Assembly (NCBI RefSeq): GCF_003018115.1
Contig: NZ_CP027457.1
Reading direction: 5' to 3' (one strand)
Length of the DNA: 64,000 nt
Source: Escherichia coli
GTDB taxonomy: Bacteria > Pseudomonadota > Gammaproteobacteria > Enterobacterales > Enterobacteriaceae
Shown here: positions 60,001-63,000 of the stretch, piece after piece
Layout: every line of letters begins with the position of its first letter
Position numbering within the stretch: the first letter of the stretch is position 1
Program-made: the position numbers

Positions 60001-63000
60001 GTTCCGTGATCAAGTGAAGAAAACCGATCTTGATGCTGAACTGCAACAACAGTTCCTTGAAGAGTTCGAGGCAGGTTTGTACGGTTATACCTATCTTGAA
60101 GATGAATAATTAAGATTATTCTGCTGGCGGGTCGATTTATTTACGTAAATCGGTCCGCTTTCTTTTTATATATTCTTAAAAATAATTTAGCTGCTTTTCT
60201 TATTAAATAATCTCCCTACAATCGCTGCATTAATTAAATGCAGAGGGAACGGTTATGAAAAAATGGAAAGTACGTAGCGCGTTGGTGGCATTAATCGTGC
60301 TGCTGGCCGGTTGTTCCAGTAATGCGCAGTATAATAGCAGTGCATCGGGCAATGTCGGCACCGCCTGGGGTGGGGATGTGCACTCAACGGTTCAGGGCGT
60401 ATCTGCTGAGCGAGCCTGGCGCGATCCGGCAGAGATGATCGTTATTAGTTATTCGACTAATGTTCCTTCCGGCTACGACCGCGTTTATAGCATTCGTATT
60501 AACGAACTGGAATATGCTATTCGCGATGGTAATTTTAATTCTCTACCTATTACGCGGGTTTATGATTCATCCAATAATGAACCACGCTATATTATCCATG
60601 CCAGAGTAGGAATGAATTATCAATTATATGTCCGCAATTACAGTCGTAACACCAACTACGAGATCGTTGCTACGGTTGATGGCCTGGATGTGCTGAACGG
60701 CAAGCAAGGTTCGCTGAATAACAACGGCTATATTGTGAATGCCGGAGATTCGTTAGCGATTAAAGGATTCCGCAAAGATAAACATACCGAAGCGGCTTTT
60801 CAGTTCGCCAACGTTGTTGATTCCTACGCAGCCAATTCGGCGCAAGGCGATATGCGTAATACCGGGGTAATCGGCTTTGCCGCCTTTGAATTACAAGGCC
60901 CGGCGCAAAACGCGCTGCCACCGTGCTCTGGACAAGCTTTTCCAGCAGATAACAATGGCTATGCGCCGCCACCGTGTCGGAAATAGCAACCTCGCTTGAT
61001 GCCTCGCCCATTTAAGGCGATAATTAGCACAAACTTGTGTTTCGCAAATCCAACCCTTCCTCGTCGGGCCTAACGACGCGGAAGGGTTTTTTTATATCGA
61101 CTTTGTAATAGGAGTCCATCCATGAGCACCTTAGGTCATCAATACGATAACTCACTGGTTTCCAACGCCTTTGGTTTTTTACGCCTGCCGATGAACTTCC
61201 AGCCGTATGACAGCGATGCCGACTGGGTGATTACTGGTGTGCCGTTCGATATGGCCACTTCTGGTCGTGCGGGGGGACGCCACGGCCCGGCAGCTATCCG
61301 TCAGGTTTCGACTAACCTGGCCTGGGAACACAACCGCTTCCCGTGGAATTTCGACATGCGCGAGCGTCTGAACGTGGTGGACTGCGGCGATCTGGTATAT
61401 GCCTTCGGCGATGCCCGTGAGATGAGCGAAAAACTGCAGGCACACGCCGAGAAGCTGCTGGCTGCCGGTAAGCGTATGCTCTCCTTCGGTGGTGACCACT
61501 TTGTTACGCTGCCGCTGCTGCGTGCTCATGCGAAGCATTTCGGCAAAATGGCGCTGGTACACTTTGACGCCCACACCGATACCTACGCGAACGGTTGTGA
61601 ATTTGACCACGGCACCATGTTCTATACCGCGCCGAAAGAAGGTCTGATCGACCCGAATCATTCCGTGCAGATTGGTATTCGTACCGAATTTGATAAAGAC
61701 AACGGCTTTACCGTGCTGGACGCCTGCCAGGTGAACGATCGCAGCGTGGATGACGTTATCGCCCAGGTGAAACAGATTGTGGGTGATATGCCGGTTTACC
61801 TGACCTTTGATATTGACTGCCTGGATCCTGCTTTTGCACCAGGCACCGGTACCCCGGTAATTGGCGGCCTGACCTCCGATCGCGCTATTAAACTGGTACG
61901 CGGCCTGAAAGATCTCAACATCGTTGGGATGGACGTAGTGGAAGTGGCTCCGGCATACGATCAGTCGGAAATCACTGCTCTGGCAGCGGCAACGCTGGCG
62001 CTGGAAATGCTGTATATTCAGGCGGCGAAAAAGGGCGAGTAAGCACCAGATGCGATGCGCACGGGTAAAACGTGCCATTAATGTCGGATGCGGCGTGAAC
62101 GCCTTATCCGACCTACGTTCGGCACCCGTAGGCCGGATAAGATGCGCCAGCATCGCATCCGGCAATGCGCACAAGGTAACAAATGTGCCATTCATGTCAG
62201 ATGCGGCGTGAACGCCTTATCTGACCTACGTTTGGCACCCGTAGGCCGGATAAGATGCGCCAGCATCGCATCCGGCAATGCGCACGAGGTAGTGAATGTG
62301 CCATTTATGTCAGATGCGGCGTAAATGCCTTATCTGAACTACGTTTGGCACCACCATGCCTTACTTAATCCCGTCCGCGCTCATACGATCGCGAATATGC
62401 TGGGCGCGTTCGGCGGATGCAGGATGGTCGTCAAACATTGAGCTTTGGCGACCTTCTTCCAGTTTTGCCAGTTTTTCAAAGCTGGTGGCAAGACCTGCCG
62501 GACTGATGCCGTGTTGGCGCAGTAAATCGTAGGAGTAATCATCCGCCTCTGCTTCCTGGCGCTGGGAGAATTGCGAATTGACTAATTTCTCGCCCAGATC
62601 ACCGAGTTGTGATTGAGATAAACTGCCGACGATACCGCCCGCAGAGGCCGCCGCGACTCGCACGGCATTTGTACCAAGTGCCACCTGCATCCCTTTCTTC
62701 ACATGGCCTAACGCCACGTGCCCCATTTCGTGACCGATCACCGCTTCGACTTCGTTATCCGTCATCATATCCATCAGCCCGCTATAGACGCGGATACAGC
62801 CGTTAGCCATTGCAAAGGCGTTCACATCCTTCGCCATATACACTTTGTAATTTACCGGCTGACCGTTGATATTGTTGCCTAGCGCATTGGCAATAGTTGT
62901 CAGACGTTTAGCGTATTCGCTATTGGCTGGCGCAATCGTCGCCTTGCTGTCCATCTCCTGACATGCCTGATCGCTCAGGGTTTTCACCTGCGCATCACTC

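Follow-up and report, generated by a model that had tools for sequence, protein, structure and literature searches.

A tandem BIME-2 array of variable copy number between the convergent genes speB and loiP of Escherichia coli

The window analysed here is a 64,000-nucleotide stretch of Escherichia coli contig NZ_CP027457.1 (assembly GCF_003018115.1), in which a tandem array of repetitive extragenic palindromic (REP) sequences lies between the convergent genes speB and loiP. We found that this array is a bacterial interspersed mosaic element of type 2 (BIME-2), in which REPs of the Y and Z2 types alternate. We propose, with a probability of roughly 0.6, that it acts as a two-way block of 3′-end hairpins for the speB and loiP messenger RNAs (mRNAs) and also as a site for DNA gyrase. 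The array is already known, being catalogued at the orthologous K-12 locus, and REP and BIME elements have been described since the 1980s; its significance goes little beyond correct annotation.

Results

A tandem REP array fills the gap between speB and loiP

Tandem Repeats Finder placed a repeat at 62068–62352 with a period of 113, 2.5 copies, 92% matches, no indels and a score of 479. A repeat search recovered two full 113-nt copies that are 93% identical, together with a 58-nt core present three times at 113-nt spacing. Alignment of the left edge showed that homology to the long linker of the unit runs leftward to ~62057, which accounts for the ~2.7 copies of a ~113-bp unit over 62048–62352 given in a preliminary description of the window. 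Flanking genes and modules are listed in Table 1. speB and loiP are convergent, as that description had it and as the annotation of strain F9792 (CP024273) confirms, and the array takes up essentially all of the 318-bp gap between their stop codons. Its plus strand is thus the 3′ untranslated region of speB and its minus strand that of loiP. The interval 61850–62550 is 100% identical to F9792 and to several O169:H41 strains. We can exclude that the repeats are an assembly artefact, because the same five-REP allele recurs in dozens of independent complete genomes. The K-12 RefSeq annotation carries no repeat_region feature in the speB–loiP gap. A 78-amino-acid open reading frame at 62088–62324 was considered as a gene and rejected, as repeat units make it up and neither Pfam nor NCBIfam gave a match; open reading frames predicted within the array, this one included, look spurious, which is a caution for annotation.

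With the REP consensus sequences of Nunvar et al. (2010), we dissected the gap into five REPs of alternating orientation, Y-Z2-Y-Z2-Y, joined by linkers of 11 nt and 30 nt. Degenerate Y and Z2 patterns matched five sites at 0–3 mismatches, against 0.00 in 100 shufflings of the window. The three Y copies lie on the minus strand and the two Z2 copies on the plus strand, bearing out the earlier statement that the unit contains REPs. Y2 departs from Y1 by a compensatory G-C to A-T change in the stem (GTCGGAT/ATCCGAC to GTCAGAT/ATCTGAC), and the second Z2 is identical to the first. When the sequences are counted position by position, the second long linker has five differences from the first and only two from the second long linker of Escherichia albertii. 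Y3, the REP closest to loiP, ends 18 nt from the loiP stop codon. In the left flank, the minimum-free-energy fold contains a small hairpin in which GCACG (62059–62063) pairs with CGTGC (62071–62075).

The array belongs to the BIME-2 family

BIME-2 elements consist of inversely oriented Y and Z2 REPs repeated several times in tandem; a short linker lies on one side, and on the other a motif that varies. In BIME-1 elements Y and Z1 occur once, as a pair, and the long linker binds IHF (Ton-Hoang et al. 2012). The window array has the first of these layouts, Y(−) Z2(+) Y(−) Z2(+) Y(−) with a period of 113 bp. Its three Y copies are ~35 nt long, headed by GTAG, carry an AA/GC internal loop in their folds and are all extragenic. 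Its two Z2 copies are 37 nt long, and each departs from the consensus GTAGGCCTGATAAGACGCGCCAGCGTCGCATCAGGCA, that of the REP which flanks rayT and alternates with Y in the K-12 array REP325, by four substitutions that form two compensatory pairs, T8/A33 to G/C and C16/G25 to T/A. In length and loop, the first Z2 matches both the published rayT-flanking Z2 units and the Z2 units of REP325. We checked the naming on a dissection of K-12 REP325, where a 37-nt Z2 alternates with a 35-nt Y. The IHF consensus WATCAANNNNTTR does not occur in 62043–62360. BIME-1 was rejected on three grounds: the array is tandem, the partner is Z2 and there is no IHF consensus. The K-12 orthologue is itself listed as ‘BIMEs2 3082469-3082615 ... 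yggG>-<speB’ in Table DS3 of Sutormin et al. (2019).

RayT (TnpA-REP), the REP-associated transposase, binds a GTAG head with a stem mismatch and cleaves at a CT dinucleotide in the inverted REP (iREP) (Ton-Hoang et al. 2012). In the array the GTAG heads and AA/GC mismatches occur, as does CC|TAC at each iREP. The z-type TGCC|TGAT site is absent, since the Z2 variant in the window reads TGCCGGAT. We found rayT in 3,574 of 5,426 complete E. coli genomes.

Copy number varies between strains in whole units

We searched the same 5,426 genomes with 61850–62550, and all but one matched somewhere; the REP parts of this query have a median of 13 matching places per genome. Between speB and loiP we observed an allelic series. 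The shortest gap, 47 bp in strain AST85, holds one REP-like hairpin that lacks GTAG, and a 90-bp gap in EC17GD31 holds one Y. These are followed by Z2 + Y in 142 bp (266917_2), Y-Z2-Y in 203–205 bp (K-12 and others), the five REPs of the window strain in 318 bp, and seven REPs in 429 bp (4/1-1 and AVS0973). Breakpoints between alleles keep to the module register. In the 429-bp allele the two internal units do not differ at all, which indicates a recent duplication. REP-free alleles of ~1.8 kb or more contain either a DUF1266 gene or a larger island starting with dagR (retrieved loci L005 3194–4989, L007 3194–4990 and L006 from 3194 onward; strains CUWW11, MINF_7C and BS90R-A). Both speB and loiP are followed directly, in the DUF1266 alleles, by terminator-like hairpins whose tails are T-rich. 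The speB–loiP gap is, as a side observation, an insertion hotspot.

Frequencies were estimated from the match spans of 40 evenly spaced ranked records, with 1–3 records verified per class. In this sample ~60% carried the three-REP form, ~10% the seven-REP form and ~8% the 47-bp form, and ~13% had no match beyond speB. The five-REP form makes up 56 of the top 60 records, which include O169:H41 strains and the O145:H28 lineage, at 97–100% identity. It is a minority allele, with 56 or more carriers among the 5,426 complete genomes (at least 1%), and occurs in several lineages. The gap can thus be used as a length-polymorphic marker that changes in 113-bp steps. Together with the REP-free terminator alleles, the series also offers natural material for experiments on how REPs affect convergent transcripts and supercoiling, effects that are still debated (Harris et al. 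2026).

Beside this polymorphic gap, the last 400 nt of loiP (62361–62760) are only 88–96% identical between pairs of the E. coli compared, which is unusually divergent, and the last 400 nt of speB are 96–99% identical. This divergence hints at recombination or mosaicism in the 3′ part of loiP.

The five-REP array is shared with Escherichia albertii

The type strain E. albertii NBRC 107761 (locus L013, 1572–1894) has a 323-bp gap with a five-REP array colinear with that of the window. The array core is identical at 260 of 271 positions (96%) between the two species. The last 400 nt of the flanking genes fall below this value, at 92.5% for speB and 87.2% for loiP. The second long linker and the last Y of the window share variants with E. 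albertii. The presence of the same array and of these variants in E. albertii points to an old five-REP form, from which the common three-REP form would have been derived when one unit was lost. Recent transfer of the five-REP allele from E. albertii was considered and rejected. The flanks in the window are those of a typical E. coli, with 98% identity to K-12 on the speB side and 95% on the loiP side as against 92.5% and 87% to E. albertii, making such a transfer unlikely. That the core is better conserved than its coding flanks (96% vs 87–93%) could be explained by selection or by RayT-driven homogenisation, either one in place of hitch-hiking.

Other enterobacteria keep a strong structure in the same gap

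A scan with the SpeB protein, one genome per species, gave 80 enterobacterial loci. The convergent arrangement of speB and loiP is widespread among them, with gaps of 36–381 bp or insertions of 1.3–1.8 kb. In Atlantibacter, Leclercia, Silvania and Enterobacter sp. Ag1, which have the shortest gaps (36–58 bp in Atlantibacter, Leclercia and Enterobacter sp. Ag1), the gap holds one strong hairpin. The Atlantibacter hairpin sits between an A tract and a T tract and has the look of a bidirectional intrinsic terminator. It was seen on inspection and was not called by the pattern scanner, probably as the scanner's stem extension absorbs the two tracts. Other genera carry palindromic repeats of their own. 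Citrobacter has REP pairs; a long-hairpin element of ~125 nt is common to Citrobacter, Trabulsiella and Klebsiella spallanzanii; Enterobacter sp. kpr-6 has CCCTCTCCC...GGGAGAGGG repeats; and a Superficieibacter genome (locus L082) has a three-unit REP array. Judged by sequence, every version of the gap that we examined keeps a strong 3′ structure, and the kind of structure is interchangeable. One contig in this set, CACSKA010000005.1 (locus L085), is titled Chryseobacterium sp. 18061; its speB (96% identical) and loiP are enterobacterial, and the repeats between them are of the Enterobacter type. This record is probably contaminated or mislabelled.

The array folds strongly on both strands and lacks intrinsic terminators

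The speB–loiP gap folds far better than its shuffles on both strands, with z-scores of −7.6 and −7.5. Single REPs form hairpins on either strand, with a GTAG head and an AA/GC internal mismatch, at −17 to −22 kcal/mol. The individual values for the two strands are −19.2 and −18.8 kcal/mol for Y1, −22.0 and −21.5 for the first Z2, and −17.7 and −17.3 for Y2; Y3 is weaker, at −13.2 and −12.1. Differences between the copies are compensatory, and the stems stay paired. A scan of 61000–63500 found no hairpin followed by a T-run in the gap on either strand, and inspection of the sequence agrees. The gap contains no promoter-like site.

Published K-12 data place Rho-dependent termination close by. 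Adams et al. (2021, supplementary file 2) list a Rho termination region at MG1655 3082496(−), classed as antisense to loiP, where downstream reads rise from 31 to 103 with bicyclomycin (p = 1e-6), measured in 800-nt windows and hence at coarse resolution. This position is on the speB-sense strand, ~175 nt past the loiP stop codon, and is equivalent to about 62536 in the window. A composition scan of the window picked out a C-rich, G-poor candidate Rho-utilisation stretch further along the same strand (Table 1). In the general model of Dar and Sorek (2018), Rho terminates transcription past REPs, and PNPase or RNase II then shortens the transcript as far as a stable stem-loop, by which the 3′ end is fixed and protected; stable 3′ stem-loops are enriched for REPs (Dar and Sorek 2018). 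A recent preprint describes REP325 as a partial Rho-dependent terminator and an mRNA stabiliser, reports higher expression of convergent gene pairs that have REPs, and places 78 REPs inside predicted bidirectional terminators (Harris et al. 2026). The parts of the supplements to that preprint that were available to us do not mention speB, loiP, yggG or the coordinates of the locus.

Gyrase cleaves the orthologous BIME in K-12

Gyrase cleavage sites are over-represented in BIME-2 elements, mostly in the Y REPs, although only a subset of these elements is cleaved, and blocking transcription with rifampicin increases, and does not reduce, the gyrase signal at BIME-2 (Sutormin et al. 2019). At the K-12 yggG>-<speB BIME, which is a three-REP allele, their Table DS3 lists two cleavage sites with rifampicin plus ciprofloxacin and two with oxolinic acid. 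A gyrase site, which the preliminary description did not mention, is the only function for which there are locus-specific experimental data, and these come from K-12 rather than from the five-REP allele.

Discussion

A proposed role and its alternatives

The preliminary description had suggested a bidirectional transcript-end structure, and at this locus such a role is plausible. Speaking for it are the stable REP hairpins on both strands, the lack of an intrinsic terminator in the gap, the K-12 Rho region shortly beyond the BIME, and the preprint's findings on REPs between convergent genes (Harris et al. 2026). Comparison adds to these the terminator-like hairpins beside both genes in REP-free E. 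coli alleles and the single hairpin between A and T tracts in Atlantibacter. Because neither gene has an intrinsic terminator, RNA polymerase coming from either side would transcribe into the array or cross it. Rho-dependent termination would then occur within or downstream of the array, and the 3′ ends of both mRNAs would be set and protected by the REP hairpins, which would also restrict antisense read-through into the opposite gene. The Y REPs, as preferred sites of gyrase binding and cleavage, would allow the array to serve as a gyrase site where convergent transcription would pile up positive supercoils. Copy number would shift by whole 113-bp units through unequal recombination or replication slippage, possibly aided by RayT.

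Several observations weigh against this proposal. The array is dispensable, as roughly a tenth of the genomes in the sample lack REPs between the two genes and others have only a single hairpin, and rayT, which bears on the last step, is missing from about a third of complete genomes. The gyrase sites in K-12 appear in two of four conditions only, with none under ciprofloxacin alone or microcin (Sutormin et al. 2019). Adams et al. (2021) list no 3′ end within the BIME (MG1655 30825xx–30829xx) in their curated Term-seq table, a weak negative because repeats are hard to map uniquely, and their data include no Rho region for the loiP-sense direction. The effects of REPs are context-dependent, and half-lives are not uniformly changed (Harris et al. 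2026). Finally, the Rho and gyrase data from K-12 concern the three-REP allele and not the window strain or its five-REP allele.

Being dispensable and variable, the array may reasonably be read as a neutral or selfish passenger, REP or REPIN DNA that sits in a harmless, promoter-free convergent gap and drifts in copy number with no effect on speB or loiP. Such a passenger would fit the variation within E. coli from one hairpin to seven REPs with some alleles REP-free, the unrelated genus-specific palindromes that occupy the gap elsewhere, the decay of the loiP-proximal Y, and the large variance without a uniform half-life effect reported by Harris et al. (2026). It fits less well with the retention of at least one strong hairpin in all alleles and species examined, which suggests that a 3′ structure is needed, or with an array core identical to E. 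albertii at 260 of 271 positions between coding flanks at 87–93%, and the gyrase cleavage and nearby Rho region in K-12 are specific to this locus. On balance we regard a pure passenger as unlikely. We think it more doubtful still that the array works primarily at the level of DNA, as a transcription-independent gyrase site or topological barrier whose RNA effects are incidental. The enrichment of gyrase sites in BIME-2, the increase of the signal with rifampicin and the 2 + 2 sites at the K-12 BIME are what such a role would lead one to expect, but no sites were seen with ciprofloxacin alone or microcin, only some BIME-2 elements are cleaved, and transcription enters the array from both sides, giving RNA that folds strongly. 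For this last reason the RNA and gyrase roles are not exclusive, and our proposal of a two-way 3′-end block includes both.

Two further possibilities have very little probability in our judgement. The array could be a source of nucleoid-associated RNAs like naRNA4, which with HU would bridge cruciform DNA and condense the chromosome. A scan of 60000–64000 with the Rfam family RF02564 (naRNA4) gave three matches on the minus strand of the array, at 53.5 (62131–62226, E = 7e-8), 42.8 and 37.7 bits; membership was rejected as even the best of these falls short of the gathering score of 59.5 bits, and the sub-threshold matches arise because REP325 is likewise a Y/Z2 array. The linkers, 11 and 30 nt as against 17 and 11 nt in REP325, also differ, and REP325/naRNA4 itself produces no measurable nucleoid compaction, with REP–REP contacts absent in Hi-C (Harris et al. 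2026), so that a nucleoid role is most improbable here. A classical bidirectional intrinsic, or Rho-independent, terminator is the least credible of all. Strong G+C-rich hairpins do lie between the convergent genes, and predicted bidirectional terminators elsewhere contain REPs (the 78 noted above), but the scan found no hairpin in the gap with a following T-run on either strand, and in K-12 read-through downstream is under Rho-dependent control. We rejected this candidate on the result of the scan; the array is not a terminator in the intrinsic sense.

The alleles, which run from one REP-like hairpin to seven REPs, or to canonical terminators in strains with islands, might tune, heritably and independently of promoters, the expression of speB, a gene of polyamine synthesis, and of loiP, as well as local supercoiling. 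We put this forward as a long shot.

Coordinates and neighbouring features

Table 1. Modules of the speB–loiP gap and adjacent features in the window
Feature	Position	Strand	Sequence or description	Basis or match
speB (agmatinase), coding sequence	61122–62042	+	stop codon TAA at 62040–62042	open reading frame list and RefSeq annotation of CP024273
Left flank	62043–62081		decayed REP-like remnant right after the speB stop, and partial long ‘l’ linker (~62057–62081)	
Y REP 1	62082–62116	−	GTAGGTCGGATAAGGCGTTCACGCCGCATCCGACA; GTAG-first on the minus strand	0 mismatches to degenerate Y, 2 substitutions vs strict Y
Short linker 1, 11 nt	62117–62127		GTTCGGCACCC; joins the GTAG ends of Y1 and Z2a	
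Z2 REP a, 37 nt	62128–62164	+	GTAGGCCGGATAAGATGCGCCAGCATCGCATCCGGCA	0 mismatches to degenerate Z2 pattern
Long linker 1, 30 nt	62165–62194		ATGCGCACAAGGTAACAAATGTGCCATTCA; joins non-GTAG ends	
Y REP 2	62195–62229	−	GTAGGTCAGATAAGGCGTTCACGCCGCATCTGACA	0 mismatches to degenerate Y pattern
Short linker 2, 11 nt	62230–62240		GTTTGGCACCC	
Z2 REP b	62241–62277	+	sequence identical to Z2a	
Long linker 2, 30 nt	62278–62307		ATGCGCACGAGGTAGTGAATGTGCCATTTA	
Y REP 3, partly decayed	62308–62342	−	GTAGTTCAGATAAGGCATTTACGCCGCATCTGACA	3 mismatches to degenerate Y, 7 to strict consensus
Right flank, 18 nt	62343–62360		partial short linker GTTTGGCACC (repeat ends at 62352) and 8 bases before the loiP stop	
loiP (metalloprotease, formerly yggG), coding sequence	62361–63119	−	stop codon at 62361–62363 (plus-strand positions)	CP024273 annotation mapped onto the window, and open reading frame list
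Candidate Rho-utilisation stretch	62633–62792	+	C-rich, G-poor, C/G 1.9–2.5; speB-sense, antisense to loiP, downstream of the array and outside the repeat	composition scan

Upstream of speB, between speA and speB, the plus strand carries a 243-amino-acid open reading frame (60255–60986) with a lipoprotein-type signal, MKKWKVRSALVALIVLLAGCSS. It has no significant match in Pfam or NCBIfam, and the annotations of F9792 and of all fetched non-K-12 E. coli loci that span the interval call it ‘hypothetical protein’. K-12 MG1655 lacks it, and the speA–speB gap there is 137 bp.

Comparison with known systems

Bidirectional intrinsic terminators between convergent genes occupy the same position as the array and have the same presumed job. 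The BIME differs from them in having no T-run, in being repeated and in belonging to a dispersed family, and its action would depend on Rho and exonucleases. Within the window, the array at 18324–18624, the sslE-pppA array of the preliminary description, is likewise an extragenic tandem REP mosaic that includes a Y-type unit. The preliminary description had set the two arrays apart as built from different units, and rightly so: the period there is 133 bp as against 113 bp, the partner of Y is a 29-nt short palindrome, GTAGGCCCGATAAGCTTGCGCATCGGGCA, instead of a 37-nt Z2, the linkers are unrelated and only the Y REP aligns. Further REPs in the window are a short-Z + Y pair at 39228–39308, a single Z2-type unit at 50002–50038 and a single truncated Y-like unit at 56093–56124.

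REP325, the naRNA1–6 array between yjdM and yjdN (Qian et al. 2015; Harris et al. 2026), is also a tandem BIME-2 in which Y (35 nt) alternates with Z2 (37 nt). It has 12 REPs, a 100-bp period, linkers of 17 and 11 nt and a CCTG variant of Z2, and lies between tandem genes; the window array, by comparison, has a 113-bp period, linkers of 11 and 30 nt and a CCGG/AT compensatory variant of Z2, and lies between convergent genes. The 11-nt linker of REP325 (locus L093, 3743–4399), ACGGTGCCGAC, stands between non-GTAG ends. It has the core GGTGCCGA in common with GGGTGCCGAAC, the reverse complement of the window linker at 62117–62127, which stands between GTAG ends; this core may be a shared motif or a coincidence.

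The closest counterpart is the K-12 ‘yggG>-<speB’ element (MG1655 3082672–3082876), which is orthologous, with the same flanking genes in the same orientation and an identical sequence from the left flank through Y, the short linker (S), Z2 and the long linker (l) to the next Y. The K-12 gap of 205 bp holds three REPs, and the window adds one S-Z2-l-Y unit of 113 bp, whose long linker has diverged and whose Y, the last of the array, has decayed.

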